From: a virus
Length of the DNA: 62,752 bases
IMG/VR virus record: IMGVR_UViG_3300032435_000007
Strand: one strand, 5' to 3'
Below the pieces are notes generated by a model, which did not search any database, was not told the origin of the DNA, and saw only the letters and a program-made list of their open reading frames with translations. The position numbers were made by a program, and so were the translations under genes. Shown piece after piece: positions 7,982 through 21,158 of the stretch (position 1 is its first letter; the number at the start of each line of letters is the position of its first letter).

Positions 7982-10482
7982 TAGTAATACCCTTTTCGTG
8001 AGCTTCTGCCCTTAAAGTACATCTGTTCTTCATCTTCGTCTAGTAGCGTAGTGACATAGCCACCCTGCCGGAACCGCATCATCGCCAAACTGAGGCTATC
8101 AACATAGTCATCATGGGAACCTGCGGGGAATTCTGCCACTTCGTCTATAACTTCTTCCGCCCAGTGTGTGTTGGGTGCCCACACCCGCCCGGAGGCAAAT
8201 ATATCGGCCACGGCGTTCAGGCGGGAAATCTTATCATTACCTCTGGTCGGGGTATACTCCTGCACCGGTAACCCCATAGCCCGAAGCTCGTATATGAGTG
8301 GCGCGCCCGAGGCTTTCTTCTCAATAATTACTCCATCAGGTTCCCAGTCATTATAATGTTGTATGGCAACCTGCTTCAGCCGCGGAAACTCCATCCGCTC
8401 CCGGAACGCATTCAGGAGGATAATGTTGGGCTGCTTGGTCCCTGTCTCGTCCTCCTTGTAGAACACACCCCACATTGTTAGCGCCGAATAGTCGGCACGC
8501 TGGGTCTTCTCGAACGCTGTGTCCCACGACTGGAGGGTGAACTCACAATGTGGCGGGTCATCATGGGGCCACTCCTGCCACCACTCCCGCTTGATAATAG
8601 CAGACTGGTCAGAAGTCGGGTTCTGCTGGTACTGCGCCATCCACTTGCTGTTGGGCAGTTCTGTCTTCAGTGCAGTCAATTCCTCCATAGGCCAAAATTC
8701 CGGCCACAGGGGCTTGCCTGACGGCATGATCGCAGGAAACTCTATAACCTCCCACTCATTACCTCCACGCTGGCTGGAGGACTTCAGCACCTGCCCTGTA
8801 AGGTCACGCTTACTCCAGCGGGTCATAACCACGACTATGGCCCCTCCCGGCTGGAGCCGCTGCCGCGGACCAGAGGTATACCACTCGTAGGTCTTGTCGT
8901 AGATATCCGGGTTTATTTCCGCTAGCGCCGCCTCTTGCTCGGAGTGCGGATCATCGATAATAAGTACATCTGCGCCCTTACCCGTAACGGCCCCGCCCAC
9001 ACCAATAGCGAAGTAGTCGCCGCCCTTGTTTGTCTGCCAGCGGCCAGCAGCCTTACTATCCGCCTGCAAGGCCACGCCGGGGAACAATTCATGGAATATA
9101 TCTGTATCGAACAGGTTACGCACTTTACGCCCGAAGCCAACGGCTAGCTCCGCGGTATGGGAAGTTTGAATAACCTTCTTCTGGGGGTATTTACCGAGGA
9201 ACCATGCGGGAAGAAGGTAGGAGGCGAACTCGGATTTTGTGTTATGGGTTACAACCCACCCACGGCCCGCCATAAACAAACCATCGGTGTTCTCCACCTC
9301 CAAGCACTGGACTATCCCCCGCCTAGTGGTCTTGCACACATCTATACTACGCCCCCAGTTACCCCGCATACTACGGCAGCGTTCCGCCTTGCGTGGAAGG
9401 CGCGCAGCGTTCTCCATCTTAAACATCAGCCGGAATGACGGTTGGCTCGGCTTCCCTTTGTAGCTAGTCTGGCGGCGCGTTTTGCGCGCCTTAACCCCTA
9501 GTCCATGCAGAAGGCATAGTGTGTCATCTATAAGCCGCTCGTTACTGTTATTGAAGGTTACCTTCCCTTCCTTGGTAACGTCACCGTCGGTGTCGATAAG
9601 CCCTTGGAGGAGCGCGGTGCGCTGTTCTACAGAAGCGCACAGGTACTCTTCTGGTATGTGTTTGTTGTGTAGGATACCCCGCTCACGTAGAACTTTATGG
9701 GTCCCCAACACATTAAACTGCTGGTATTTCGGGTTGTGTGTAGTTTGGTATCCCTCTGCCTCAACCTGCGCTCGCATAGCAGGCTGGTCGCCGCGCCCAC
9801 AGCCAATGGAAGCCCCGTACGTACTTCCATCCCCCAGCCATACACCTAGCATATAAGGTGTTAGGGGTAAGTCGTGCCTATGTGGGTACTTAGCGGCTTC
9901 CTGCGAGGGCAGTATTGGGAGGTTACCTGACTCGCGCCAACTCTCTGTCTCCAACTTATGAAGGATTTCTTGGGTAGAAAGCGTCTGATATGGCCTATCG
10001 TTCGACCCAAACCGCACCGTCCATAGGTGGGTAGCATCACAGGTTATTACCTGTCCATCACCCGTTTTGACTTCGTATAGGTCTTCCTCGTACTGGGCCG
10101 ACTTACCCATAACCCGCACAGGCGTGCCATCTGGGGCGAACACATAATCCCCTGTCTCTACAGTCTCGACAGTTTTCCATCCCGTAGTAGTGGGGATTTC
10201 TTCTTTTATATCAAGCCGATGGCGCGGTGGCATGTTGATTATTAAGCGCTTTAACGTCCCCGCAGCCACACGTTCAAACGCCTCGGCCATAATGGCATGG
10301 TGCCGCCCTGATATAAAAGTAGGCCATACTTCCCGCACGAACGGCATGAAGTGGTCCTGCGCAGCCTTGCGCTTCTTCAGGTTGTCCAGTTTTTCAAGTT
10401 CGGCAAGAAGAAGTTCCTGCTCCGCAGGGGACAGGAGCGGCAGTATCTTCGGGATATCTTCTATTTTGATTTCTTCAAACAT
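7981..10482 (-). CDS. terL: terminase large subunit, interrupted by an intein (precursor 833 aa)
   Basis: N-extein ends in the P-loop context LIINMPPRH. The C-extein resumes TKSEFASYLLPAWFLGKYP and continues through ATPase/nuclease-like sequence (VLIIDDPHSE, DDYVDS). Confidence 0.9.
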   Translation of the reverse strand: MFEEIKIEDIPKILPLLSPAEQELLLAELEKLDNLKKRKAAQDHFMPFVREVWPTFISGRHHAIMAEAFERVAAGTLKRLIINMPPRHRLDIKEEIPTTTGWKTVETVETGDYVFAPDGTPVRVMGKSAQYEEDLYEVKTGDGQVITCDATHLWTVRFGSNDRPYQTLSTQEILHKLETESWRESGNLPILPSQEAAKYPHRHDLPLTPYMLGVWLGDGSTYGASIGCGRGDQPAMRAQVEAEGYQTTHNPKYQQFNVLGTHKVLRERGILHNKHIPEEYLCASVEQRTALLQGLIDTDGDVTKEGKVTFNNSNERLIDDTLCLLHGLGVKARKTRRQTSYKGKPSQPSFRLMFKMENAARLPRKAERCRSMRGNWGRSIDVCKTTRRGIVQCLEVENTDGLFMAGRGWVVTHNTKSEFASYLLPAWFLGKYPQKKVIQTSHTAELAVGFGRKVRNLFDTDIFHELFPGVALQADSKAAGRWQTNKGGDYFAIGVGGAVTGKGADVLIIDDPHSEQEAALAEINPDIYDKTYEWYTSGPRQRLQPGGAIVVVMTRWSKRDLTGQVLKSSSQRGGNEWEVIEFPAIMPSGKPLWPEFWPMEELTALKTELPNSKWMAQYQQNPTSDQSAIIKREWWQEWPHDDPPHCEFTLQSWDTAFEKTQRADYSALTMWGVFYKEDETGTKQPNIILLNAFRERMEFPRLKQVAIQHYNDWEPDGVIIEKKASGAPLIYELRAMGLPVQEYTPTRGNDKISRLNAVADIFASGRVWAPNTHWAEEVIDEVAEFPAGSHDDYVDSLSLAMMRFRQGGYVTTLLDEDEEQMYFKGRSSRKGYY
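9241..10218 (-). mobile_element. intein (about 326 aa, residues 89-414) with a LAGLIDADG homing endonuclease; class 3 (WCT) signature
   Basis: Hint block A RLDIKEEIPTTTGWKTVETVETGDYV. Block B DATHLW. LAGLIDADG motifs LGVWLGDGS and LQGLIDTDGD. Block F VQCLEVENTDGLF. Block G VVTHN followed by Thr+1. Confidence 0.8.
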
Positions 10483-11197: not shown

Positions 11198-11312
11198 GTA
11201 GGGTTACCCTTCTCCAAAATTTTGCGAAAAATTTTTATGGGTTTTCGTTTGAAAACATGGCGGGGGGGTCTGGAGAATAGGCCCCTACCCCTCGTAACTC
11301 CTCGTTTTCTCT

Positions 11313-11421
11313 AAATATGGAGAACAAACCTCCAAATATGGAGAACAAACCTCCAAATATGGAGAACAAACCTCCAAATATGGAGAACAAACCTCCAAAT
11401 ATGGAGAACAAACCTCCAAAT
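11313..11421. repeat. perfect tandem array: 21-bp unit AAATATGGAGAACAAACCTCC, 5.2 copies (iteron-like)
   Basis: Read directly. Copies start at 11313, 11334, 11355, 11376 and 11397. Each unit contains a GGAG..CTCC inverted pair. Confidence 0.95.
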
Positions 11422-11534
11422 TTCAAAAATTACCCATCGGGTGTGCTTAATAGTAATGAAGGGGGGCGGTAACATTTTCTCTGTGTCGGGGGATAGGGGG
11501 GAGGTACGGTGCGCGCGTCTAACAACGTTACCTC

Positions 11535-11562
11535 TTGGCGCTCCGTTTCCATGTGCTACATA
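11535..11562 (+). promoter_or_regulatory. sigma70-like early promoter P1
   Basis: TTGGCG, 16 nt, then TGTGCTACATAA (extended -10). The -10 block TGTGCTACAT(A/T)A is shared with 13365.. and 15994... Confidence 0.55.
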
Positions 11563-11614
11563 ATAAGGGCGTTAGCAATTCTGCTAGCGTATACTTAACT
11601 AGGAATATTTACTT

Positions 11615-12235
11615 ATGGCCAACACAACAGAGACAACTAAGCCAGCCCGCAAGCCAGCCGCTAAGTCAGCCAGCCAGATATTGGCAGCTAGTCGCGTCAA
11701 GGCCAAAGCAAAAGAGGATGCGCGCCAAGCTAAAGCCATTGCCACTATCGCCAATGGTGCCCGCAAGGCGGCAGAAACTAAGCCATTGCCAGCCTTGCGT
11801 ATGGCATTTGTCACGGCGGTTATGTCAGGGGATGGAAAAACATTAGCCTATGCGAATAGCCTTACCATCCAGTTTGGGAAGGGATGGGAGAAGATTAAGC
11901 TGGCTGGACCTTGCACCCCAAATGAAAAGAAAGTTAGGGAGGCAATCAAAGTAGAGCAAAGTGTTCTATATGCTATGCTAAAGGGTAAGGGGCATTCAAA
12001 CCCTAGCGTTGTCTGGGGACGGATGAAGCTGGCTGCTGCTGCCCCTGCTAAGAAAGGTGCAAGAGCCAATGCGCCTAGAGCGATTGATGCAAGGCAGAAA
12101 GATGAATTAAGTAAGCTTTACAAGGCTTTCTTCACCGCCGATGATTGCAATAGCGACGCTTGCAAGGCTAACCTTGCGATTGCCGCTATCTTACTTGACG
12201 TGTTCAAGGTGGATATTGGCTCGCTCAAGTCTTAA
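11615..12235 (+). CDS. hypothetical basic Ala/Lys-rich early protein (206 aa)
   Basis: First plus-strand ORF downstream of P1. Followed by an intrinsic terminator. Confidence 0.7.
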   Translation: MANTTETTKPARKPAAKSASQILAASRVKAKAKEDARQAKAIATIANGARKAAETKPLPALRMAFVTAVMSGDGKTLAYANSLTIQFGKGWEKIKLAGPCTPNEKKVREAIKVEQSVLYAMLKGKGHSNPSVVWGRMKLAAAAPAKKGARANAPRAIDARQKDELSKLYKAFFTADDCNSDACKANLAIAAILLDVFKVDIGSLKS

Positions 12236-12276: not shown

Positions 12277-12283
12277 CCTGCGG

Positions 12284-12328
12284 CGTTTATGAGAGTGACT
12301 CTATAGTGAGGGGACCAAGCCCGCACGC
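12284..12328. repeat. copy 1 of a 45-bp direct repeat (CGTTTATGAGAGTGACTCTATAGTGAGGGGACCAAGCsCGCACGC)
   Basis: Identical except one base to 12383..12427 (99-bp period). The reverse complement contains CTCACTATAG. Confidence 0.9.
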
Positions 12329-12366
12329 GCCGCGCCCGCGTCCACCACCCTGCTAGCTGCGCAGGG

Positions 12367-12379
12367 ATAACATTGTTAG
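12367..12379. promoter_or_regulatory. palindromic early-region motif (ATAACATTGTTAG)
   Basis: Perfect 11-bp core TAACAWTGTTA, preceded by TAGCTGCGCAG as at 12466. Confidence 0.7.
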
Positions 12380-12382
12380 CCC

Positions 12383-12427
12383 CGTTTATGAGAGTGACTC
12401 TATAGTGAGGGGACCAAGCGCGCACGC
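12383..12427. repeat. copy 2 of the 45-bp direct repeat
   Basis: See 12284..12328. Confidence 0.9.
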
Positions 12428-12435
12428 CGAGGGAT

Positions 12436-12460
12436 TAAAAACAGGACGCGTTTGTCCTGT
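12436..12460 (-). terminator. rho-independent terminator of the minus-strand RHH gene
   Basis: Minus strand reads ACAGGAC-aaacgc-GTCCTGT followed by TTTT, 30 nt after the stop at 12491. Confidence 0.6.
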
Positions 12461-12476
12461 CATTAGCTGCGCAGCC

Positions 12477-12489
12477 CTAACAATGTTAG
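12477..12489. promoter_or_regulatory. palindromic early-region motif (CTAACAATGTTAG)
   Basis: Perfect 13-bp palindrome directly abutting the stop codon of the RHH gene. Confidence 0.7.
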
Positions 12490-12490
12490 C

Positions 12491-12895
12491 TTATTCAGGC
12501 TCCTCGTTTGCCTCTGCCCAAGTCATCTGTTCCTTCTGCTTCTTTACTGGCATACCTGCCATTGGGTCTTCAGGTGGCTCGGGTAGATCATCATCATCCC
12601 AGTCAAGGATTGCTTGTACGTCGGGGTGGACTTTTGGGGGTTTTTGGGTGTTTTCATGTACGACATTTGCCTTACTTTTGTATGTGCTTTCACCTACATT
12701 TGTTGTATCTTTCTCTACGTCTTCTATGAGAAAAATACGTCTAAAATGGTCCTGTATGAGAAGTCGAAGACAAGATGCCATAGTCCTATCGTCGTTCTCT
12801 GCTATACGTTTCAGTAGTGTTCTCGTACCAACCGATGCACGTATAGTACAGAACTCTATGTCAGTTGTAGGATTAGTCTCGTCGAGGTGTCCCAT
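12491..12895 (-). CDS. ribbon-helix-helix (Arc/CopG/MetJ-type) DNA-binding protein with an acidic tail (134 aa from ATG 12895; a GTG at 12919 is possible)
   Basis: FCTIRASVGTRTLLKRIAENDDRTMASCLRLLIQDHF fits a strand-helix-helix pattern. It is the only minus-strand gene inside the early arm. GAAAGGA RBS precedes ATG 12895. Confidence 0.6.
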   Translation of the reverse strand: MGHLDETNPTTDIEFCTIRASVGTRTLLKRIAENDDRTMASCLRLLIQDHFRRIFLIEDVEKDTTNVGESTYKSKANVVHENTQKPPKVHPDVQAILDWDDDDLPEPPEDPMAGMPVKKQKEQMTWAEANEEPE

Positions 12896-12923
12896 AGTTG
12901 TGTCCTTTCTGTATGACACCTAT

Positions 12924-12952
12924 GGTATACACTCGTATACATCTCGGGTCAA
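12924..12952 (-). promoter_or_regulatory. sigma70-like promoter of the RHH gene with an embedded GTATAC-N4-GTATAC repeat
   Basis: Minus strand reads TTGACC, 17 nt, TATACC. The spacer and -10 carry GTATAC twice (12925-12930 and 12935-12940). Confidence 0.5.
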
Positions 12953-12982
12953 CCTGTCGTATATCATGCATCACTTTCGTAT

Positions 12983-13286
12983 ATTGTAAGAAAAACACCC
13001 CCTATTGTAATGAAGGTTGTAAGAAAATAAATGGCAGTTTTCCGGGCATTGTAAGCCATGTAATATTGTAATGGAGGTTTTTGGTTGAATTCCAGATCGC
13101 GTCCTCTCCAGCATATGCACTTTTCCCGCATCACGCCACCAACCCAAAAACTGCTCCATAATCTTAAAAACTCATTACATTATTACAATACCTTACTTTT
13201 TCCTCGCAACGCCTACGCCATCTGCCGTTTCTATTGTAAGAAAACCCCTTTTTCAATTTTCTTACAACCCATTACAATATTACAAT
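12983..13286. repeat. cluster of at least 10 copies of the heptamer ATTGTAA/TTACAAT in an AT-rich non-coding region
   Basis: Forward copies at 12983, 13004, 13016 (GTTGTAA), 13048, 13065 and 13233. Reverse copies at 13183, 13272 and 13280, plus near-copies at 13175 and 13262. An 11-bp inverted repeat TTGTAAGAAAA/TTTTCTTACAA lies at 13234-13244 and 13257-13267. Confidence 0.85.
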
Positions 13287-13364
13287 GTGTCACGTTAACT
13301 ACACCCCCTTATGACAGTGCTTTTCCCTCCTCCAGTATGCTTCTCACCGACCCATCCACCCCTA

Positions 13365-13393
13365 TTGAAGTAACCACAATAATGTGCTACATT
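13365..13393 (+). promoter_or_regulatory. sigma70-like early promoter P2
   Basis: CCACCCCTATTGAAG (-35 TTGAAG), 17 nt, TGTGCTACATTA. A 39-bp near-identical copy lies at 15986-16024. Confidence 0.6.
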
Positions 13394-13462
13394 AAAAGAA
13401 AAAATGGAGATCAAGAGAATAAAACGAGCCAAGACGCACCCGCAGAAACCACACTAACCAAC

Positions 13463-13475
13463 CTAACATTGTTAG
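13463..13475. promoter_or_regulatory. palindromic early-region motif (CTAACATTGTTAG; extends to the 15-bp CCTAACATTGTTAGG)
   Basis: 31 nt upstream of ATG 13507, in the predicted 5' UTR from P2. Confidence 0.75.
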
Positions 13476-13506
13476 GCCCAACCACAGGAAAGAAGGAAAT
13501 CATATT

Positions 13507-13773
13507 ATGACCCGCTCAGAACGCATCGCATACAACACCCACCGGATGAACAAAGTGAACGAACACACCCCCATCCTTATCAAGGGCCGCACTGACTACT
13601 ACTCTGGCTGCCATGCAGGGCGCGTGGCGGCGCGCAACCCTAACGTCGTTAGGAAGCCTATCTTTGCCCATTCCTGCCCCAAGGATTATATCCGTGGGTT
13701 TCACAAGCACTGGTTCGCTAACCGTACCATCAACATAACCATGAGCCAGCATGGCCCAAGCAACGCGTACTAG
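13507..13773 (+). CDS. hypothetical early protein (88 aa)
   Basis: ORF with an AAGGAA RBS region. No motif recognised. Confidence 0.6.
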   Translation: MTRSERIAYNTHRMNKVNEHTPILIKGRTDYYSGCHAGRVAARNPNVVRKPIFAHSCPKDYIRGFHKHWFANRTINITMSQHGPSNAY

Positions 13774-13782
13774 AGAAAGGAA

Positions 13783-13795
13783 ATAACAATGTTAG
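13783..13795. promoter_or_regulatory. palindromic early-region motif (ATAACAATGTTAG)
   Basis: The 3' end runs into the AGGAG Shine-Dalgarno sequence, 11 nt upstream of ATG 13807. Confidence 0.75.
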
Positions 13796-13806
13796 GAGCA
13801 AATAGC

Positions 13807-14016
13807 ATGATTAGCCTCGTAGGACGCCGTACAGGCCCACCACTCACTACCCCTGCCCAACTACCCGATAAGGTGTTTATCGCACCCCAAGGACTATCTT
13901 GGAGCATTTACGCCCTATACGGCGAGGAAGTTCTCACTCACCAAGGGTTATCTCTGGAAGATGCAACCGACTTCGCTGTCGAGGTGCTGCACACACCGAA
14001 GGAGTTACTTTCATGA
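13807..14016 (+). CDS. hypothetical early protein (69 aa)
   Basis: ATG 13807 lies downstream of AGGAG. The ORF-track start at 13789 lies inside the palindrome. Confidence 0.55.
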   Translation: MISLVGRRTGPPLTTPAQLPDKVFIAPQGLSWSIYALYGEEVLTHQGLSLEDATDFAVEVLHTPKELLS

Positions 14017-14047
14017 TTAGGAAGGAAGGACAACAGAAGCAGCAGAA

Positions 14048-14060
14048 GTAACATTGTTAG
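14048..14060. promoter_or_regulatory. palindromic early-region motif (GTAACATTGTTAG)
   Basis: 10 nt upstream of ATG 14071. The 20-bp context GCAGAAGTAACATTGTTAGG is repeated at 15181. Confidence 0.75.
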
Positions 14061-14070
14061 GGGAAAGATC

Positions 14071-14520
14071 ATGAGCAAGGAAGAAAAACAAGTATCAATC
14101 ATCGAACGGAAACAACTGCATATACACATATCGCGGGATAGCCTCTTGCATACCTGCTTACATGTAGACTGTTTCAAGGACGCGCTCACGAGGGTGGGCG
14201 TCTGGCGCGAGGGTGGGCCTCTAGGGGGATATACAGACATAATATTATGTGACGACCATTTTGCGCTTATGGTTGTAGCCCTGCGGGAGTTTGGCTTCAA
14301 ATATAAGAGCAAGGACAAGAAAGAGGTGCGCATAGTCCGTGCACCCATAACCCATGAAGATTGGTCGTGTACGGGGTGCATAGCCAGCCCCGCCAAGTGG
14401 CACCTGAAGCTAACTGCTCCCGAAGTAACCATAGCTAACGTATGTTCGCCATGTCTAAACAAACTACGCGAACGCTGTGCGGCGCAAGGTATGCGTACGC
14501 CGGAGGAGTTACTCTTGTAA
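14071..14520 (+). CDS. hypothetical Cys-rich early protein (149 aa), possible C-terminal zinc ribbon
   Basis: CTGC..(21 aa)..CSPC pair near the C-terminus. Confidence 0.6.
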   Translation: MSKEEKQVSIIERKQLHIHISRDSLLHTCLHVDCFKDALTRVGVWREGGPLGGYTDIILCDDHFALMVVALREFGFKYKSKDKKEVRIVRAPITHEDWSCTGCIASPAKWHLKLTAPEVTIANVCSPCLNKLRERCAAQGMRTPEELLL

Positions 14521-14531
14521 AGGAAGCACTT

Positions 14532-14738
14532 ATGCAAATACACGTAATACCAAAGCTAGTGTCTAATTCGCAGACCCCTGTGACTCTAACTAACGTTAGC
14601 AACGGCTACGGCTACGGCGAAGGCTACGGCGACGGCGAAGGCTACGGCGACGGCTACGGCGACGGCGAAGGCTACGGCGACGGCGAAGGCGAAGGCGAAG
14701 GCTACGGCGAAGGCGAAGGCGAAGGCTACGGTGGATAG
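14532..14738 (+). CDS. small protein (68 aa) with an acidic Gly/Tyr low-complexity tail (GYG[DE]GE repeats)
   Basis: AAGGAAG RBS 6 nt upstream of ATG 14532. The N-terminal 24 aa are followed by GYGYGEGYGDGEGYGDGYGDGEGYGDGEGEGEGYGEGEGEGYGG. Confidence 0.55.
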   Translation: MQIHVIPKLVSNSQTPVTLTNVSNGYGYGEGYGDGEGYGDGYGDGEGYGDGEGEGEGYGEGEGEGYGG

Positions 14739-14778
14739 AAATTTTACTACGTGCCTACCAAACCAAAAGGAATATAAA

Positions 14779-15057
14779 ATGACAAACACAAATATGGAAC
14801 CAATGAACCGCACTATAATAATCGGGAACGCTGGACATGTCTGGGTAGCCGAGCAGGTAACCAAGGATGATATGTTCTTCCACCTGCATAATGCTAGGAC
14901 AATACGGGTATGGGGTACTTCGCGAGGGCTTAACCAGCTTGCCGTGGAGGGACCTTCAAAAGAGACTGTATTGGATGCGCAGACAGATATTATATCCCTG
15001 CTTCACCATGCCACTATCGCGCTAGTCCCATGCCGCCAAGGTTTGGATTGGAAGTAA
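14779..15057 (+). CDS. hypothetical early protein (92 aa)
   Basis: AAGGAA RBS precedes ATG 14779. The IIIGNAGHVWV..ARTIRVWGTSRGL pattern looks like a conserved phage family I cannot name. Confidence 0.55.
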   Translation: MTNTNMEPMNRTIIIGNAGHVWVAEQVTKDDMFFHLHNARTIRVWGTSRGLNQLAVEGPSKETVLDAQTDIISLLHHATIALVPCRQGLDWK

Positions 15058-15071
15058 GAAAAGGAAAGAAA

Positions 15072-15212
15072 ATGAAGGAAAATAAACAAACGCCCAAGGA
15101 AGCAGAGCAAGCCGGTAGCTTCCGCCATTGGGAATATGTGTATCACGCAGGACAATGGATTCCTGTGGAGAAGAAGCAAGCAGAAGTAACATTGTTAGGA
15201 GCAAGAGCATGA
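15072..15212 (+). CDS. hypothetical small protein (46 aa)
   Basis: AAGGAAAG RBS. The stop overlaps the next start (ATGA at 15209-15212). The 3' coding end contains the palindrome motif. Confidence 0.4.
   Translation: MKENKQTPKEAEQAGSFRHWEYVYHAGQWIPVEKKQAEVTLLGARA
15187..15199. promoter_or_regulatory. palindromic early-region motif (GTAACATTGTTAG)
   Basis: Runs into the AGGAG Shine-Dalgarno sequence, 9 nt upstream of ATG 15209. Confidence 0.75.
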
Positions 15213-15976
15213 ACAAGAGAAAAACATATACGTACGGAACCTATGCCTATTATAGTAACCTTATAAGAACCACTACGCCTTTTGTTAAAGGCCGGTGTGT
15301 AGGCAAGATACCTATAGGGGATAGGCGGAGAAATTGGGAGCAAATACGCAGAGAGGGGGACGATATTGTAATATCCTTCGGAACCCATGACTGCTTACGG
15401 TTCAAGAAGAACGGACAGGTAGTTATCAATACTGGTATATACCAATACTATTCGCTCATTAACTTTATCTCTGGTCGCCTACAATGGAGTACTAATTTGT
15501 TTATGAACCGAGGTGTAATATGCCTGAGCAACGCGCTTGGGGTATTCAGAGTGCCAGACGACACGGACTACGCGCTATACTCAACAATGCGGCCAATCAA
15601 CCCCGTCAAGGAAGTACGTTGGTACGTCAACCGTAAGGCTATGGCTAAGGTGCGAGCCACAGTAGCTGGCTTCAGGAAGTATGTGAAACTGATGTTCAAT
15701 CTCGCGGGTAAAGAACCACACGAGTATATGGATTTTGACATTAAAAAAAGGCTGGTCACTATCACATACGCAAAGCAGATTGTCACAGCTATGCAGGGAG
15801 AGGACTCGGAGCAATGGTACGCAACGCTGCAACATAGGTGGCGCAATTGGAGCGTAGACACTGTAGAGCGTATGATAACCCGCAGCCTGACAACCTATTA
15901 TGGCAATAAGGTTATGCGGAAAGAAGTGCTTCCCTATGGGGAATGGAAGCGGGAGATAAACAAACCCCCTGTCTAG
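15209..15976 (+). CDS. hypothetical early protein (255 aa from ATG 15209)
   Basis: The internal ATG with AGGAG is preferred over the ORF-track start at 15128. Confidence 0.6.
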   Translation: MNKRKTYTYGTYAYYSNLIRTTTPFVKGRCVGKIPIGDRRRNWEQIRREGDDIVISFGTHDCLRFKKNGQVVINTGIYQYYSLINFISGRLQWSTNLFMNRGVICLSNALGVFRVPDDTDYALYSTMRPINPVKEVRWYVNRKAMAKVRATVAGFRKYVKLMFNLAGKEPHEYMDFDIKKRLVTITYAKQIVTAMQGEDSEQWYATLQHRWRNWSVDTVERMITRSLTTYYGNKVMRKEVLPYGEWKREINKPPV

Positions 15977-15993
15977 GAGGCCCCCCACCCCTA

Positions 15994-16022
15994 TTGAAGT
16001 AAGCACACTATTGTGCTACATT
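15994..16022 (+). promoter_or_regulatory. sigma70-like promoter P3
   Basis: CCACCCCTATTGAAG, 17 nt, TGTGCTACATTA. Near-identical to P2. Confidence 0.6.
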
Positions 16023-16079
16023 ATAAACTCGACGCCGTGACTACAACTGAGCAACCCGCACCATCCGGTGCAATCACAC

Positions 16080-16092
16080 CTAACAATGTTAG
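16080..16092. promoter_or_regulatory. palindromic early-region motif (CTAACAATGTTAG; extends to the 15-bp CCTAACAATGTTAGG)
   Basis: 20 nt upstream of ATG 16113, in the predicted 5' UTR from P3. Confidence 0.75.
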
Positions 16093-16112
16093 GTTTTACA
16101 GGAGCATAAATC

Positions 16113-17189
16113 ATGTCTAATAAAGTATCTTTTGGTTCGACCGTTACCCTTTCTGAAGCAGCCAGCGTCATTCTGGCTTGCCCTAAGAACCGCGTCATTC
16201 TGGAGGGTGAGCCGGGAATTGGCAAGTCCACACTCCTAACGATGTTAGGTAAGGCGCTACCTGACCACAACCTTGCGTATATCGACGTACCCAATATGGA
16301 CCTTGGGGATACGTCTATGCCTGTCATCGACCATGACAACCGCGTGTGCAACTACTTCCCTAATGCGCGGTTCAGACTGACCGAGGATAAGCCGGTTATC
16401 ATCATGCTTGACGAGTTCACCAAGGGCATGGCTCCGGTTAAGAATATGCTGCATCCGTTGCTGGAGGAAAGCAACCCGCGCCTTGGGGATATCACACTAC
16501 ACCCAGACAGCTACGTGTTCCTGACGGGCAATCTGTCCAGCGATGGGGTAGGGGACAATCTCGCAGCGCATAGCGCCAACCGCCTAACAAGGTTATTGGT
16601 GTCCAAGCCAACCGCCGAGGAGTGGATTACATGGGCGTTGAACAGCGGGGAGGTTGACCCTGCTGTGCTAGCCTTTGTGGACAAGTACCCCGATGTGCTG
16701 GAAAGCTATCTTAACGAGGGGCAGAAGGAAAATAAGTATATCTTCCAGCCCCGCACTATGCAGCAAGCCTATGCTTCGCCACGGTCTTTGGTCAAGGCTA
16801 GCCGGTACGTGGAAAATCGCCACCTACTCCCTAACGAGAACACCCTTACGGCGTCTCTTATTGGTACTGTAGGACAGGCAACCGCTCGGGACTTGCAGGC
16901 GTTCGTCGCCTACCAAGATCAGCTTCCTACTTGGGACGCCATCATCAAGCAGCCTGACACTGCTGTAGTACCCACAAGTCCGGGCGCTTGTTCAGTGCTG
17001 GTCTATGGCGCGGTTACCAAGGTGGACGATGCAACCATCAAACCCTTCATGAAATATATCTCACGGTTTCAGGAAGAATGGCAAGCCGCTTTCGCTATCA
17101 ACGTAGCCAAGAACCCTAACAAGCAGAAGGTAGCGTTTACCAGCGATGCGTTCCGTAATTGGGTGCTGGAAAACGAAGACCTGTTATAA
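16113..17189 (+). CDS. MoxR/CobS-type AAA+ ATPase (358 aa)
   Basis: Walker A GEPGIGKST and Walker B IIMLDEFTKG. Paired with the downstream VWA protein. Confidence 0.75.
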   Translation: MSNKVSFGSTVTLSEAASVILACPKNRVILEGEPGIGKSTLLTMLGKALPDHNLAYIDVPNMDLGDTSMPVIDHDNRVCNYFPNARFRLTEDKPVIIMLDEFTKGMAPVKNMLHPLLEESNPRLGDITLHPDSYVFLTGNLSSDGVGDNLAAHSANRLTRLLVSKPTAEEWITWALNSGEVDPAVLAFVDKYPDVLESYLNEGQKENKYIFQPRTMQQAYASPRSLVKASRYVENRHLLPNENTLTASLIGTVGQATARDLQAFVAYQDQLPTWDAIIKQPDTAVVPTSPGACSVLVYGAVTKVDDATIKPFMKYISRFQEEWQAAFAINVAKNPNKQKVAFTSDAFRNWVLENEDLL

Positions 17190-17208
17190 AGTGAGGGGAC
17201 CTTCTGTA

Positions 17209-17475
17209 ATGGCTAAGACATATGACATAAAGGAAGTGCGTCTCTCGGTGAATAAATTCACTCGGGGGGCTAGCAGTCCTGTTAAATACACTCGGGAGGC
17301 TAGCAGTCCTGTAAAAGTATTCGAGGACCGCCCACCTGTGTTTCCTTATGTGGTGGAGTTCTATCTATTTGACCCAAGGAAGAATGATTATACGGATATC
17401 TTCATTGTTTCAGCAGTTGATGAAATGGATGCGTTCGTAAAAGGAACAAAAAGGATTGAAAGATATAAGAAATAA
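17209..17475 (+). CDS. hypothetical protein (88 aa) with a short internal duplication (TRGASSPVK / TREASSPVK)
   Basis: GAGGGGA RBS precedes ATG 17209. That RBS is part of a third AGTGAGGGGACC copy. Confidence 0.5.
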   Translation: MAKTYDIKEVRLSVNKFTRGASSPVKYTREASSPVKVFEDRPPVFPYVVEFYLFDPRKNDYTDIFIVSAVDEMDAFVKGTKRIERYKK

Positions 17476-17599
17476 CCAGTGGAATTTCCAAGTGGGGACA
17501 CCCCCTAGTCCACTAATCAAGACTATCCTGCCAACGCGTGTGTATGTTGGTTAAACCTGTCCACTGGTGACATAATTAACAGGGTAAGGGTAGTCGGGG

Positions 17600-17612
17600 G
17601 TAACATTGTTAG
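17600..17612. promoter_or_regulatory. palindromic early-region motif (GTAACATTGTTAG) with an extended shared flank AGGTGGGCACTWTCATAA
   Basis: 43 nt upstream of ATG 17656. The 30-bp block is repeated at 19116-19145. Confidence 0.75.
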
Positions 17613-17655
17613 AGGTGGGCACTATCATAAGTGCCAGAGCAAGAGGAAAGAGCAA

Positions 17656-18861
17656 ATGAATATTCAAACAGCACATAAAGACACCGCCGAACGTAAGCTG
17701 AAGCGTGTGAAAATTGCCCTGATGCGTAACCCCAAGTTCGCGCTGTGGGCTGGCATCCTGATGGTAGGTGATACTATCGTAGACGACAACGTGCGTACTG
17801 CCTGTACCGATGGGAGGGATGAAATCTATGGCCGTAAGTTTGTAGAGGAACAAACCGATAAGGGCTTGGCCTATGTTATCCTGCACGAATGTCTGCACAA
17901 GGCGTTTCGTCATCTGTCTATCTGGCGTGGGTTGTTCAAACAAAATGCACGGTTGGCTAACATGGCTTGTGACTACGTGATTAACCTTATGCTCGAAGAG
18001 ATTGATCCTGAGCATAAGTTCATCGAACAGCCAACAATGGATGGCAAGACAGTCGGCCTCCTCGACAAGAAATATGCCGGTATGAACAGCAAGCAGGTGT
18101 TCGACCTACTCAAGAAGGAGCAGAAAAAGAAACCAGAAGGCCAGCAGTCCTTTGACAAACATGATTGGGAAGGGGCAGAAAGCCTGACCAAAGAAGAAGT
18201 AAAGGAACTGGAGCGGGAAATCGAACAGGCTGTGCGCCAAGGGCAGATGCAGCATGAGCGGTTGAATGGCAAAGGCGCGGGGAATATGGGCCGCGAGTTG
18301 GATGATTTGCTTAACCCCAAGATTGATTGGAAGGATGCGCTGCGGGAATTTATCCATCAGACCTGCGCTAACAAAGATACGTCCTCGTGGCGTAGGCCTA
18401 ACCGTCGGTTCCTGTACCAGAACATATATATGCCTAGCCTTGTCGGTGAACAGTGCGGGCGGTTGGTTATTGGCATCGATACTTCTGGTTCTATTCGGCA
18501 GGAAGAAATTACCCGCTTCCTATCCGAAGTGGCGGGCATTGTAGACCTTGTGCATCCAGAGGGCATCGACCTGATCTATTGGGACCACAAGATAGCAGGC
18601 CACGAAGAATATGATATGAATACGCTGCAAAGCCTAACGACCTCGACCAAACCATGTGGGGGCGGTGGTACGTCACCAGCTTGTGTGATGGACTATATCG
18701 AAGAAAAGCACCTTGAGCCTGTCGCCGTACTTATGTTCACCGATGGGTATATTGGGGATTGGGGCGATAACTGGAAGCACCCATTGCTTTGGGTAATCCA
18801 GAATGGGGGCAGCCATATCGAAGCGCCCAACGGACGCACAATCAACATGGATGGAGTGTGA
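17656..18861 (+). CDS. VWA-domain protein with an N-terminal HExxH metallopeptidase-like domain (DUF2201-type partner of MoxR ATPases)
   Basis: HECLH (HExxH) near the N-terminus. MIDAS motif DTSGS (IGIDTSGSIRQEE) in the C-terminal half. Confidence 0.7.
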   Translation: MNIQTAHKDTAERKLKRVKIALMRNPKFALWAGILMVGDTIVDDNVRTACTDGRDEIYGRKFVEEQTDKGLAYVILHECLHKAFRHLSIWRGLFKQNARLANMACDYVINLMLEEIDPEHKFIEQPTMDGKTVGLLDKKYAGMNSKQVFDLLKKEQKKKPEGQQSFDKHDWEGAESLTKEEVKELEREIEQAVRQGQMQHERLNGKGAGNMGRELDDLLNPKIDWKDALREFIHQTCANKDTSSWRRPNRRFLYQNIYMPSLVGEQCGRLVIGIDTSGSIRQEEITRFLSEVAGIVDLVHPEGIDLIYWDHKIAGHEEYDMNTLQSLTTSTKPCGGGGTSPACVMDYIEEKHLEPVAVLMFTDGYIGDWGDNWKHPLLWVIQNGGSHIEAPNGRTINMDGV

Positions 18862-19118
18862 TGGACAACGCAAACCAAAAAGTAATCCTCCAAATGGGGA
18901 TGGTACATTTTGTTATGGATATGGAAGAAGCTATAACCATAACAAAGATATTAGGGAAATCCGAGCGGTTCAAGCGGCAAGGTTACGGCGACAATGCGAC
19001 TTTCCATATATGGGAAGAAGCAGAGGCACCACTTGAACCTACTCGGGCAATCCATCTTTTGGACCAGACAACCTATAATATCGCCAAGCTGGCTGGCAAA
19101 CCAGTAGGCGACGCCTAA
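18861..19118 (+). CDS. hypothetical protein (85 aa)
   Basis: ATG 18861 overlaps the upstream stop (TGATG). Confidence 0.5.
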   Translation: MDNANQKVILQMGMVHFVMDMEEAITITKILGKSERFKRQGYGDNATFHIWEEAEAPLEPTRAIHLLDQTTYNIAKLAGKPVGDA

Positions 19119-19127
19119 CAATGTTAG
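19115..19127. promoter_or_regulatory. palindromic early-region motif (CTAACAATGTTAG) plus the shared flank
   Basis: Overlaps the stop codon of 18861..19118. 45 nt upstream of ATG 19173. Confidence 0.75.
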
Positions 19128-19172
19128 AGGTGGGCACTTTCATAACCAAACTGAGCAAGAAGGACTAACATC

Positions 19173-20024
19173 ATGAGCATCAATACAGCAGCAATCCTCG
19201 TTGAAATGAATATCAGCGTATGGACAGCAAATAAGATAGACCGGGCCGCGTCTATCAAAGTCAACTCAACCTCTCATGCTAGCAGCGATGCGGGCAAGTA
19301 CCGCAAGAACCTTATGGCTGGTACGACAAAACGCAAGGCTATCGCAGACTACGCGGCACAGTGTCGGTTGTGGCATAACCAGCAGACGTTGCCTTGGTCT
19401 GATAAGGGTTCGCGGCTTATCCCTATGTCGCTATTCATGGACTACAAGCAGGAGGCCGCCGTACGCCGTGACATATTCGATGTTATGGTGACGGACTTCC
19501 TCGCTAACTACGAAGACCATGTTGCGGCTAGTGAAGCACACCTTGGGGATTTGTTTGACCCCAACGATTACCCTAGTGCGGCGCAAGTGGCGGATAAGTT
19601 TGGCTATCGCCTTGTGTTCTCCCCACTGCCTGACTCGGGAGACTTCCGCGTAGACGCACCCGCTGCGGAAGTGGAGGAACTACGCAAGCAGTACGAAGCA
19701 AGTGTGGACGAGCGCGTAGCCGAAGCCATGCAGACGCCGTGGAACCGGTTGCATGAAATGCTTATCAGCATGACCGATAAGTTGGGGCGCGAGGAGCAGG
19801 GCAAGGATACCCGCTGGTACGACTCGTTCATTAACAATGCTACGACGTTGTGCCAGATGCTTACCCATCTTAACGTAACAGGTGACCCGAAGCTGGAGCT
19901 AGCAAGGAAAGACCTTGAACGCGCCATGATGGGTGTGACCATTGACGATGTACGCGAGGACGATAGAACCCGCGAGACTATGAAGGAGCAACTTAGCGGC
20001 ATCCTCAAAAACTATGAATGGTAG
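19173..20024 (+). CDS. conserved hypothetical protein (283 aa), possibly DUF3150-like
   Basis: The N-terminal pattern LVEMNISVWTANKIDR..AGKYRKNLM..TLPWSDKGSRL recalls a family often found beside MoxR/VWA pairs. This is from memory only. Confidence 0.5.
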   Translation: MSINTAAILVEMNISVWTANKIDRAASIKVNSTSHASSDAGKYRKNLMAGTTKRKAIADYAAQCRLWHNQQTLPWSDKGSRLIPMSLFMDYKQEAAVRRDIFDVMVTDFLANYEDHVAASEAHLGDLFDPNDYPSAAQVADKFGYRLVFSPLPDSGDFRVDAPAAEVEELRKQYEASVDERVAEAMQTPWNRLHEMLISMTDKLGREEQGKDTRWYDSFINNATTLCQMLTHLNVTGDPKLELARKDLERAMMGVTIDDVREDDRTRETMKEQLSGILKNYEW

Positions 20025-20040
20025 GATTAACTAATCACGA

Positions 20041-20053
20041 CTAACATTGTTAT
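20041..20053. promoter_or_regulatory. palindromic early-region motif (CTAACATTGTTAT, core perfect)
   Basis: 25 nt upstream of ATG 20079. Confidence 0.7.
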
Positions 20054-20078
20054 CGCTATTACACTAGGAGCAAGTACC

Positions 20079-20945
20079 ATGGAAGAAATTAAAAAAAGAA
20101 CAGTTCACAACGCGCCATATATCCAACTTACAGATGTGGACCCAACGAACGGCCATACTACTTTTGAAGTAGAAGATAGGTTGTTACCGTTATTGGATAT
20201 ACTTCGCGTCCGCCACCCAAAGTGGATGTTTGAGGGTAATCTAACAATTACAGGGGGTCATTTAATAAGGGGTGTGTGCATATCGTTGAACGACGAAATG
20301 CTTGGTCGGGTGAGATACGACTCCTATTATGGGTTTGTTATCCATAACAAACGTATAGAAGACAGCATGGAGAGAAAATCAGATAAGACTACCGCTAAGG
20401 CTGATACGGCCAAGAGGATTATTGAAAAGTATTTCCGCCCAAAAGACCACCTAGAACGTATGCGTGAGATAACTGGTAAGGCTAAAAAATTAGCGGCTGA
20501 ATATTCTACAACGGTGGGTTGCGATAAACGTAGGGCAACGCAAACCTTCCAGCGAATAGTTTGGAAGGAAGCCTTTGCGGATATACCCGCGACCATGGCG
20601 CGGCTGAATATACCGGAAAATGCAGAGGATGGTGCCGGTAACGTTGTAAAACTTCAAGCGCGCAGCGAAGAAGCGGATAAACTATACGCACAAATTGACA
20701 CCTCCAAGGGTGTATATATATTGGACATGGGTAGCCGTGTATTGACATATGAGTACGACCCTGAAGGTAAGTTGGCTTTCGCTGAGTACGAAAAAACAAA
20801 TATCCCACAGGAAATAAAGGCGTCCTATGGTATGTTAAAAATTGTAGCCGACGGTGACACGCTTCCCGATATCGGGGTAAGGATAAGCGATAAGGAATAC
20901 TTTATTTGCAAGAAGGATAAACCCGATGCCAAGACCGAAGGGTGA
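20079..20945 (+). CDS. hypothetical protein (288 aa)
   Basis: AGGAGC RBS. No motif recognised. Confidence 0.65.
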   Translation: MEEIKKRTVHNAPYIQLTDVDPTNGHTTFEVEDRLLPLLDILRVRHPKWMFEGNLTITGGHLIRGVCISLNDEMLGRVRYDSYYGFVIHNKRIEDSMERKSDKTTAKADTAKRIIEKYFRPKDHLERMREITGKAKKLAAEYSTTVGCDKRRATQTFQRIVWKEAFADIPATMARLNIPENAEDGAGNVVKLQARSEEADKLYAQIDTSKGVYILDMGSRVLTYEYDPEGKLAFAEYEKTNIPQEIKASYGMLKIVADGDTLPDIGVRISDKEYFICKKDKPDAKTEG

Positions 20946-21090
20946 GAACCCACCACTGAAGCACTTTACGTTGCGTATACCACAGGAGGTGTACGATTAT
21001 TTTAAGAGCACCGAAGATAATCCTTCCGCTGGTATGCGCAGGGTATTGGACAAGTATGTGCGGGAGTGGAGGCAGAGGGAGGACTTGTAG
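20926..21090 (+). CDS. small ribbon-helix-helix-like protein (54 aa; BrnA/CopG-like pattern)
   Basis: KHFTLRIPQEVYDYFKS...GMRRVLDKYVRE is colinear with RHH antitoxin-like proteins (VTIRLD..VL.WFK...IN.VLR.YV). Below the 60-aa cutoff of the ORF track. Confidence 0.45.
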   Translation: MPRPKGENPPLKHFTLRIPQEVYDYFKSTEDNPSAGMRRVLDKYVREWRQREDL

Positions 21091-21104
21091 ATAAGTAAGC
21101 AGCA

Positions 21105-21117
21105 CTAACAAGGTTAG
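21105..21117. promoter_or_regulatory. palindromic early-region motif, 1 mismatch (CTAACAAGGTTAG)
   Basis: Last copy, abutting the terminator at 21117. Confidence 0.55.
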
Positions 21118-21154
21118 GGGCGCGCGGGTAATAAAATCCTGCGCGCCCTTTTTT
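21117..21154 (+). terminator. rho-independent terminator ending the palindrome-bearing early block
   Basis: GGGCGCGC-loop-GCGCGCCC followed by TTTTTT. Confidence 0.85.
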
Positions 21155-21158
21155 GTGC

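Follow-up and report, generated by a model that had tools for sequence, protein, structure and literature searches.

The DNA analysed here, IMG/VR record IMGVR_UViG_3300032435_000007 (the window), is a complete metagenomic contig of 62,752 bp with a podophage-like organization in two arms. One arm runs leftward and carries the structural genes. The rightward arm, at about 11.5-35 kb, carries small genes together with genes for an AAA ATPase, a VWA/DUF2201 protein, a VRR-NUC nuclease, DNA polymerase A, an SNF2 helicase and a DUF927 primase-helicase. The closest cultured relatives are far off, Rhizobium phage RHph_TM3_14A and Pseudomonas phage KPP25 showing 37% and 34% polymerase identity. The element in question is a 13-bp palindrome with the 11-bp core TAACAWTGTTA, which is repeated through the first gene block of the rightward arm, the presumed early block, between a sigma-70-like promoter (11535-11564) and an intrinsic terminator (21116-21156). 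Profile scans of the block proteins with Pfam, PHROGs and NCBIfam gave matches to the AAA ATPase (gene 16113-17189) and VWA/DUF2201 (gene 17656-18861) proteins only. When searched at the nucleotide level, cultured phages yielded no match to the block. The relatives used for comparison were 80 IMG/VR loci with a VWA homologue at 46-58% identity (individual loci are denoted by L and a number); in a direct protein search, most small genes of the block had no homologue among them. The palindromes, listed without strand, and the features that bound the block or are relevant to its control are as follows.

11519-11531, site 1, CTAACAACGTTAC, arms intact with centre AAC; ends 3 nt before the −35 hexamer of promoter P1
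11535-11564, plus strand, P1, sigma-70-like promoter predicted by a scan from its consensus match (TTGGCG-18-CATAAT), before the first gene of the block
11615-12235, plus strand, g1, conserved first gene of the block; all-helical AlphaFold2 (AF2) model with a mean predicted confidence (pLDDT) of 74
12367-12379, site ATAACATTGTTAG, within the first copy of a 110-bp tandem duplication
12477-12489, site CTAACAATGTTAG, adjoining the stop codon of the minus-strand gene 12491-12895
13463-13475, site CTAACATTGTTAG, 31 nt upstream of the ATG at 13507 and about 65 nt past a promoter-like box
13640-13652, in-gene site CTAACGTCGTTAG, perfect arms with centre GTC
13783-13795, site ATAACAATGTTAG, running into the Shine-Dalgarno (SD) sequence GGAG; ATG at 13807
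14048-14060, site GTAACATTGTTAG, ATG at 14071
15186-15198, site GTAACATTGTTAG, ATG at 15209; within the 3' end of the preceding small open reading frame (ORF)
16080-16092, site CTAACAATGTTAG, upstream of the AAA ATPase gene 16113-17189
16236-16248, in-gene site CTAACGATGTTAG, coding for LTML right after Walker A of the AAA ATPase
16584-16596, degenerate in-gene site CTAACAAGGTTAT, in the AAA ATPase gene
17600-17612, site GTAACATTGTTAG, upstream of the VWA/DUF2201 gene; overlaps the −35-like hexamer of GTAACA-17-TATCAT (promoter scan)
19115-19127, site CTAACAATGTTAG, overlapping the stop codon of the preceding ORF; upstream of gene 19173-20024
20041-20053, site CTAACATTGTTAT, upstream of gene 20079-20945
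20926-21090, plus strand, BrnA/DUF4415-like ribbon-helix-helix (RHH) protein of 54 aa, last gene of the block; candidate site reader
21105-21117, last site, CTAACAAGGTTAG, one mismatch; directly before the block terminator
21116-21156, plus strand, intrinsic terminator closing the block; 13-bp G+C stem, 9-nt loop, then a U run; fold of −32 kcal/mol, z-score −4.8

The exact core occurred 10 times in the 62,752 bp against an expectation of 0.02, and no shuffled sequence reached 10. The matches start at 12368, 12478, 13464, 13784, 14049, 15187, 16081, 17601, 19116 and 20042, with their span ending at 20,052; the 13-mers listed above begin one base earlier. With the relaxed pattern TAAC-NNN-GTTA, 19 matches were obtained where 1.1 were expected. 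Fifteen of them fell within 11.5-21.2 kb and four outside, at 23390, 47108, 53110 and 58132. A mismatch-tolerant scan added the in-gene copies at 13640 and 16236, which have perfect arms and a non-A/T centre, and at 16584, which has one mismatch. The original prediction of this repeat, made from the sequence of the window, was therefore correct in its ten exact copies, in the one-mismatch copy at 21105-21117, in the degenerate variant at 11519-11531 and in the two longer flanks said to be shared between copies.

A copy had also been reported in front of almost every gene of the block. A site stands 10-45 nt ahead of the start of eight of the approximately 16 plus-strand genes, and the copies at 12367 and 12477 precede no plus-strand gene, so that this description was overstated. 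Nor do all copies precede start codons, with those at 13640, 16236 and 16584 lying inside genes. The contact between palindrome and SD sequence (TGTTAGGAG/GGG) is real for three copies of the window and is absent as a feature of the family: a logo of 294 distinct sites displayed neither a promoter-like or SD-like flank nor a conserved downstream base.

The element could be traced through the same gene block of more than 100 related uncultured phage contigs. The identical 11-mer was present in 39 of the 80 loci, with up to 22 copies per 20-kb locus, and the median spacing between sites was about 650 bp. Relatives with the main type of arm held 481 sites in 428 kb of block; past the polymerase start there were 8 in 160 kb, and upstream there were none in 47 kb. 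Sites recurred at orthologous junctions, namely before the AAA gene, the VWA gene, the two conserved genes that follow and the block terminator; the arrangement of site and terminator at the block end was also found in L009, L052, L007 and L029. A similar motif density outside the block and a lack of conservation at orthologous junctions had been named beforehand as the observations that would count against the prediction. Given the confinement to the block and the recurrence at these junctions, neither was made.

The logo of the 294 sites reads C-TAACA-W-TGTTA-G, with weaker mirror-image preferences at three more positions per side. Around this main form, relatives showed the arm variants ATAAC/GTTAT, CTGAC/GTCAG, CTCAC/GTGAG, CTAAG/CTTAG, CTTAT/ATAAG, GTAAC/GTTAC, TTAAC/GTTAA and TAAACA/TGTTTA as well as the more distant forms ATACA-N4-TGTAT and TACTGT-CAG-ACAGTA. 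The centres were composed of A and T only, 2-5 nt long and present in both orientations. Within one genome, the arms were the same at all sites. This is best seen by comparing L089, with arms CTAAC/GTTAG, to L105, with arms CTAAG/CTTAG, where the orthologous sites had switched jointly, as expected of an operator and its reader. The core proteins shared by these two phages were mostly 84-92% identical, with lower values for the protein of gene g20079 (67%) and the VRR-NUC protein (69%).

Placement in the relatives was not tied to gene starts. Sites were found between genes, before the first promoter, before the block terminator and inside long genes. Those inside genes occupied fixed codons, coding for ITMLDE in Walker B and for SNIV in the AAA protein, for NIVSST in the VWA protein, for ELTMLG in a 283-aa protein and for NLTML in the VRR-NUC protein. 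The codons forming the motif were nearly invariant, whereas neighbouring synonymous positions varied freely. In-gene, terminator-adjacent and promoter-upstream sites show that the palindrome is not a start-codon element, and the frozen synonymous positions suggest that what is required is a certain density of sites, not a function at gene starts. A site lay upstream of the first promoter and g1 in more than 20 relatives, at varying distance from the −35 hexamer. In the closest relatives, L082-L085, the core CTAACAACGTTA of this promoter-upstream site was invariant and both its flanks varied; these loci are too alike outside g1 for a general footprint, and the site upstream of P1 is the only informative one. 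The sites are thus under selection at the nucleotide level, symmetric, confined to one block and conserved in the family.

Two further observations concern the arrangement of the sites. Pairs of palindromes 110-121 bp apart recurred in L005, L020, L021, L022, L031 and the window (12367/12477), and frequently lay on either side of the first-gene promoter. In several related loci the spacing was exactly 120 bp, which is compatible with looping between two bound sites. In the window, both members of the pair lie in the 110-bp tandem duplication at 12277-12490, with one palindrome per copy. A different palindrome, GTTACC-N5-6-GGTAAC, was present in about 30 copies in L081 (RHph_TM3_14A, MN988472.1, bases 1-45000), spread over both genome arms and mostly at gene boundaries. 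A related but genome-wide phenomenon may exist in cultured phages.

The explanation we favour, at about an even chance, is that the palindromes are duplex-DNA sites for a symmetric, dimeric reader that co-evolves with them and controls the early block as a unit. The half-site would be [C/A]TAAC, two half-sites facing each other across a short centre of A and T that is probably not read base by base, and the reader would bind as a symmetric dimer or as a dimer of dimers. Sites stand about once per 0.5-1 kb across the first approximately 10 kb of the rightward arm, some of them past internal promoters. From the symmetry and placement of the sites we infer that protein binds the duplex and that, as the reader accumulates and occupies its sites, it would repress adjacent promoters and act as a roadblock to the elongating host RNA polymerase, so that early genes would be shut off or timed and the remaining genome left untouched. 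If the RHH protein is the reader, its being encoded last in the block would provide delayed negative feedback. Co-evolution of reader and sites is proposed because the sites of any one genome change jointly. Neither a single-subunit RNA polymerase gene nor any other RNA polymerase gene was detected in the phage; regulation confined to one block must therefore act in cis, and a phage of this kind cannot simply inhibit the host enzyme. Of the functions originally put forward for the repeat, operators for a dimeric regulator are the best supported, as double-stranded DNA sites; the DNA-facing residues of the RHH protein do not, however, co-vary with changes of the motif.

The most serious alternative, which we nevertheless regard as unlikely, is a small stem-loop with a 5-bp stem and an A/U loop of 2-5 nt, formed in early mRNA or as an extruded DNA hairpin and read by a phage or host protein for processing, stability, decay or translation, in the manner of T4 RegB and RegA on early mRNAs. 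RNA folding argues against it: three of the eight folded window copies, all of them lacking the outer C:G pair because the outer C is replaced by A or G, gave 0 kcal/mol, and the others reached at most −6.7 kcal/mol. The base preferences at positions 1-3 outside the core are mirror images of each other, as in half-sites, while Watson-Crick pairs are no more frequent there than in within-genome shuffles (p = 0.42, 0.95 and 0.99), and hybrid sites that cannot pair, A..G and C..T, were common. Among single-mismatch variants there was no overall wobble bias, with 12 G·T against 6 A·C (5 against 4 without L041), nor an arm bias (26 mismatches in left arms, 30 in right arms). The loops hold A and T only and occur about equally as reverse complements (AAAT 26/ATTT 27; AAAAT 6/ATTTT 5), with AAT and ATT counted 97 and 56 times, and the A and T beside the centre are conserved though they could not pair across a 1-nt loop. 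The promoter-upstream site is not transcribed from the first promoter and hence does not lie within the block transcripts. Finally, the single arm sequence per genome and the joint switch between L089 and L105 call for a sequence-specific, co-evolving reader whether the site is a duplex or a hairpin. The earlier suggestion of an RNA-level translational operator or processing site is not supported by these results, the start distances also not being fixed and copies being present inside genes and at the terminator. Several observations nevertheless speak for a hairpin, and some of them against a rigid dimer. The arms stay complementary while changing between phages, including in double changes, an outcome that a dimer site predicts as well. 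The length of the centre is free, 2-5 nt between phages and ±1 within one genome, which a rigid dimer would not tolerate and a hairpin loop would: in L029, L047, L038 and L016, sites between genes are 12- or 14-mers and those within genes 13-mers, and in L007 both 12- and 13-mers stand between genes. The 11 sites of L041 are nearly all T·G hybrids, seven in one orientation and three in the other, and can be read as wobble pairs, T·G being found in 7 of the 11. The exchange of C:G for G:C in L105 was accompanied by no change in the RHH protein, many copies stand 10-45 nt before starts, with three abutting the SD sequence, and an A-rich centre is mildly favoured on the coding strand (138 against 104, p = 0.03, uncorrected for relatedness). 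It also counts against the proposed control of early genes that the block is taken to be early from its position and gene content alone. A more specific form of the alternative, in which early RNA, or DNA that is transiently single-stranded, would form hairpins read by a phage factor co-evolving with the stem, appears rather improbable to us. If true, it would establish hairpins as a new class of early-gene signal, serving in processing, timed decay or initiation, within a very large uncultured podophage family without an N4-type polymerase.

A host protein is another conceivable reader. A dimeric DNA-binding protein of the host, either a global regulator or a nucleoid protein, would then bind the duplex sites and couple early expression to the host or be titrated by them, and the motif variants would reflect differing hosts. 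The symmetry evidence applies to this reading as it does to a phage-encoded dimer, and the same motif is found across phages with highly variable candidate readers (the RHH strand and the helix-turn-helix (HTH) of the protein family fam34) and with VWA proteins only about 50% identical; in L089 and L105, moreover, all sites switched without a change of the RHH protein. We consider it quite unlikely, as no host factor with such a site could be named and the restriction to the block and the co-occurrence with the RHH gene would have no obvious explanation. A literature search for the motif returned nothing relevant to it, only chance matches to primers and oligonucleotides. A search on palindromes in connection with KPP25 also gave nothing relevant. 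Recombination at module boundaries, by repeats that promote exchange of early cassettes like the PeSL elements of T4-type phages, had been proposed originally as well, and is now very improbable. Small genes that vary strongly between relatives are indeed flanked by sites, two pairs of window sites share longer flanks and two sites lie in the 110-bp tandem duplication. Breakpoints between relatives, however, do not coincide with the sites: the ends of aligned segments fell within 5 bp of a site in 3.4% of cases versus 3.2% at random, and within 20 bp in 11% versus 7.6%. Sites are also kept at frozen codons inside essential-looking genes, and their exact sequence is kept over deep divergence, which homology-driven exchange does not need.

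N4-type promoters, single-stranded DNA hairpins with a 5-7 bp stem and a 3-nt loop for a virion-injected RNA polymerase, are the least probable of the alternatives and have hardly any chance of being correct. The geometry fits the early promoters of N4 and LUZ7 (PMC4496689, PMC9163698), the pair of AAA and VWA genes in the block is common to N4-like phages, and the genome encodes a virion protein of 2341 aa. This protein, however, had no sequence match to any PDB chain, the N4 virion RNA polymerase (vRNAP) structures included, and its sole homologues were PLxRFG/DarB-like polyvalent proteins; on homology grounds, an N4 vRNAP was thus rejected as its likely identity. Sequence searches found no RNAPII-like genes and left the polymerase families unmatched. 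N4 promoters are directional and have conserved G-rich loops, while the sites studied here are symmetric, are found in both orientations and in some cases stand immediately in front of a terminator or within a gene. Were transcription to begin 13-14 nt from the centre of the hairpin, three genes would lose their SD sequence. Sigma-70-like promoters are present as well.

Returning to a phage-encoded dimer on duplex DNA, the leading candidate for the reader, by position and co-occurrence, is the RHH protein encoded at 20926-21090. Arc, Mnt, CopG, omega and BrnA exemplify RHH repressors, small dimers with a beta-alpha-alpha fold whose targets are short dyads or repeated subsites and which often bind as dimers of dimers. 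A hidden Markov model search found the family of the candidate in 56 of 81 sources, at the block end in each, where a site and a terminator come after it. For several homologues JGI gives the name DUF4415, one has PF14384 (BrnA antitoxin family), and the Pfam BrnA model gave E-values of 0.1-0.2 on the relatives. The AF2 model (pLDDT 86) has an extended N-terminus followed by two helices; its top PDB match was the Arc repressor, with a TM score of 0.5 and a non-significant E-value of 7. Loci that are RHH-positive and cover the block have 5-20 sites each, and all such loci except the short L034 and L006 have a TAAC-type array or a close arm variant (CTGAC, CTCAC, CTAAG, CTTAT), whereas the RHH-negative L010 and L072 have no palindrome array. 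Of the two RHH proteins that had been noted in the block, it is thus this one that belongs to a conserved family co-occurring with the array; the other, at 12491-12895, has no homologue in the 80 relatives.

The attribution of the sites to this protein also meets with contrary evidence. L034 and L006, although RHH-positive, have few or no sites. The residues of the strand and N-terminal arm vary widely among phages with an identical motif; conversely, the predicted DNA-facing residues are identical in L089 and L105 despite their differing motifs, and the residues are nearly identical in L060, which has a 13-mer, and in L028 and L030, which have a 15-mer. No RHH homologue was detectable in the fetched DNA of the array-bearing L065 clade, L052, L067/71/75 and L073/79. 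A scan for homologues in other genomic contexts returned members of the same phage family only, and therefore provides no independent test of the pairing of RHH protein and motif.

Three other proteins were considered as readers and rejected. In many relatives a site and promoter precede g1, whose family was found in 26 sources, always at the left block edge; its AF2 model is all-helical and had no meaningful PDB match. The minus-strand RHH-like gene 12491-12895 had no Pfam hit in addition to lacking homologues in the relatives. The fam34 protein (HTH plus DUF3310), with a gene next after the RHH gene in most relatives and only 43% identity between L089 and L105, is lacking in the window and in many relatives rich in sites, and its recognition helix varies under the same motif.

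The closest precedent, by analogy and not by membership, is the 17-bp dyad repeat 5'-TGTTCGGNNNCCGAACA of Cluster O mycobacteriophages (Corndog and relatives), which is present in about 34 copies and was predicted by its authors to be bound by a dimeric DNA-binding protein (PMC4351075). In both cases a short perfect inverted repeat with a mostly A/T centre of 3 bp occurs in either orientation regardless of the direction of transcription, in tens of copies, many of them intergenic and, in Cluster O, about a third in-gene; neither is tied to rearrangements and the phages are apparently not temperate. The Cluster O repeats, however, are genome-wide, denser at one end and have 7-bp arms, as opposed to 5-bp arms, a variable centre and a single block here, and both sequence and lineage are unrelated, the motif here being CTAACAWTGTTAG and the cultured kin being podophages of Rhizobium and Pseudomonas. 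New with respect to Cluster O are the confinement to one block, the centre of variable length, the co-varying arms across more than 100 contigs and the conserved in-gene positions.

Cluster A stoperators, the sites of L5 gp71-type repressors, offer a parallel for the proposed roadblock: bound repressor halts elongation and silences operons, and sites and repressor co-evolve (PMC9283540, PMC6550527). They too are 13-bp sites, many within transcribed regions and mostly in short intergenic gaps. Unlike the palindromes, which show both centre orientations and are limited to one block of a genome in which no integrase was seen, stoperators are asymmetric, orientation-dependent and genome-wide, are bound by a monomeric two-domain repressor and serve prophage immunity. 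A likeness to the start-associated sequences of Cluster K mycobacteriophages, drawn in the original prediction, proved superficial: at a distance of 3-7 bp from start codons, those sequences include the SD core and lack symmetry (PMC3203893). They share with the palindromes a length of 13 bp, restriction to the non-structural half of the genome and a frequent position upstream of genes, but they are non-palindromic and in one orientation, while the sites described here lie 10-45 nt from starts or have no downstream gene. In the early promoters of N4 and LUZ7 the stem measures at least 4 bp and the loop 3 nt, and LUZ7 has nine early transcription start sites; promoters of this type are directional, with a conserved purine loop (PMC4496689, PMC9163698), and the start lies 11-14 nt downstream. 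The 5-bp stem and 3-nt loop, the location in an early region and numbers similar to LUZ7 are common to both systems; unlike them, the window has no detected vRNAP or RNAPII and its sites are symmetric with A/T centres.

Other RHH operators resemble the present case in that the block ends with a BrnA/DUF4415-like RHH gene. They usually serve one or few promoters, in contrast to the 10-20 dispersed sites here and to RHH residues that do not co-vary. In IncP plasmids, the operators of KorA and KorB are perfect palindromes of 12-13 bp, scattered over 7-12 sites of the mobile element, where dimeric global repressors bind and act at differing distances from promoters. They belong to a plasmid and not to a phage, and their readers are of the ParB and HTH families.

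If the palindromes act as proposed, one short symmetric word would mark a whole early block as a single regulatory unit, and early genes would be switched off in a stoperator-like manner in a phage that relies on host RNA polymerase throughout infection. The conservation inside genes costs codon freedom and shows a strong need for a minimum site density. In metagenomic phage contigs, the palindrome provides a simple sequence signature of the early block, and its co-evolving variants form a natural series from which the specificity code of the reader could be derived. The family also offers a testable case for unexplained dyad repeats in other phages, for example those of Cluster O.

Several other features of the window and its relatives were noted. 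Two near-identical 40-nt boxes at 13360-13400 and 15986-16026, CCCCTATTGAAGTAA.CACA.TA.TGTGCTACATTA, each lie 55-65 nt upstream of a palindrome and look like phage-specific sigma-70-type promoters (TTGAAG-17-TACATT). Both copies of the 110-bp duplication contain the minus-strand 18-mer CCCTCACTATAGAGTCAC (12295-12312 and 12394-12411), which resembles the T3/T7 promoter core CCCTCACTA(A/T)AG. Upstream of the minus-strand gene 12491-12895, the segment 12983-13286 holds 8 of the 15 ATTGTAA heptads of the window, in both orientations; this cluster looks like a separate operator array, reminiscent of the heptad operators of omega-type RHH proteins. Between the two divergent arms, at 11309-11421, the 21-bp unit CTCCAAATATGGAGAACAAAC is repeated 5.4 times, with a different copy number in L082 and L083, and could be an iteron-like or packaging-related element.

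The g1 gene (11615-12235) is about 14% diverged from L082-L085 in surroundings that are about 99% identical, which marks it as a local hotspot for divergence or exchange. The large terminase gene (7981-10482, minus strand) holds an insert of the LAGLIDADG/homing-endonuclease type, possibly an intein. The gene of the 2341-aa protein lies in the virion arm (35528-42553, minus strand), and the C-terminal third of the protein matches PLxRFG/DarB-like proteins of approximately 60-kb podophages, among them PEp14, SopranoGao, Skulduggery and PBC5. Finally, the small ORF at 14533-14738 consists nearly entirely of hexapeptide repeats of the GYG(D/E)GE type (Tandem Repeats Finder, period 6, 21.7 copies), and similar repeats, ACGGCnACGGC, are contained in L034 and L052.

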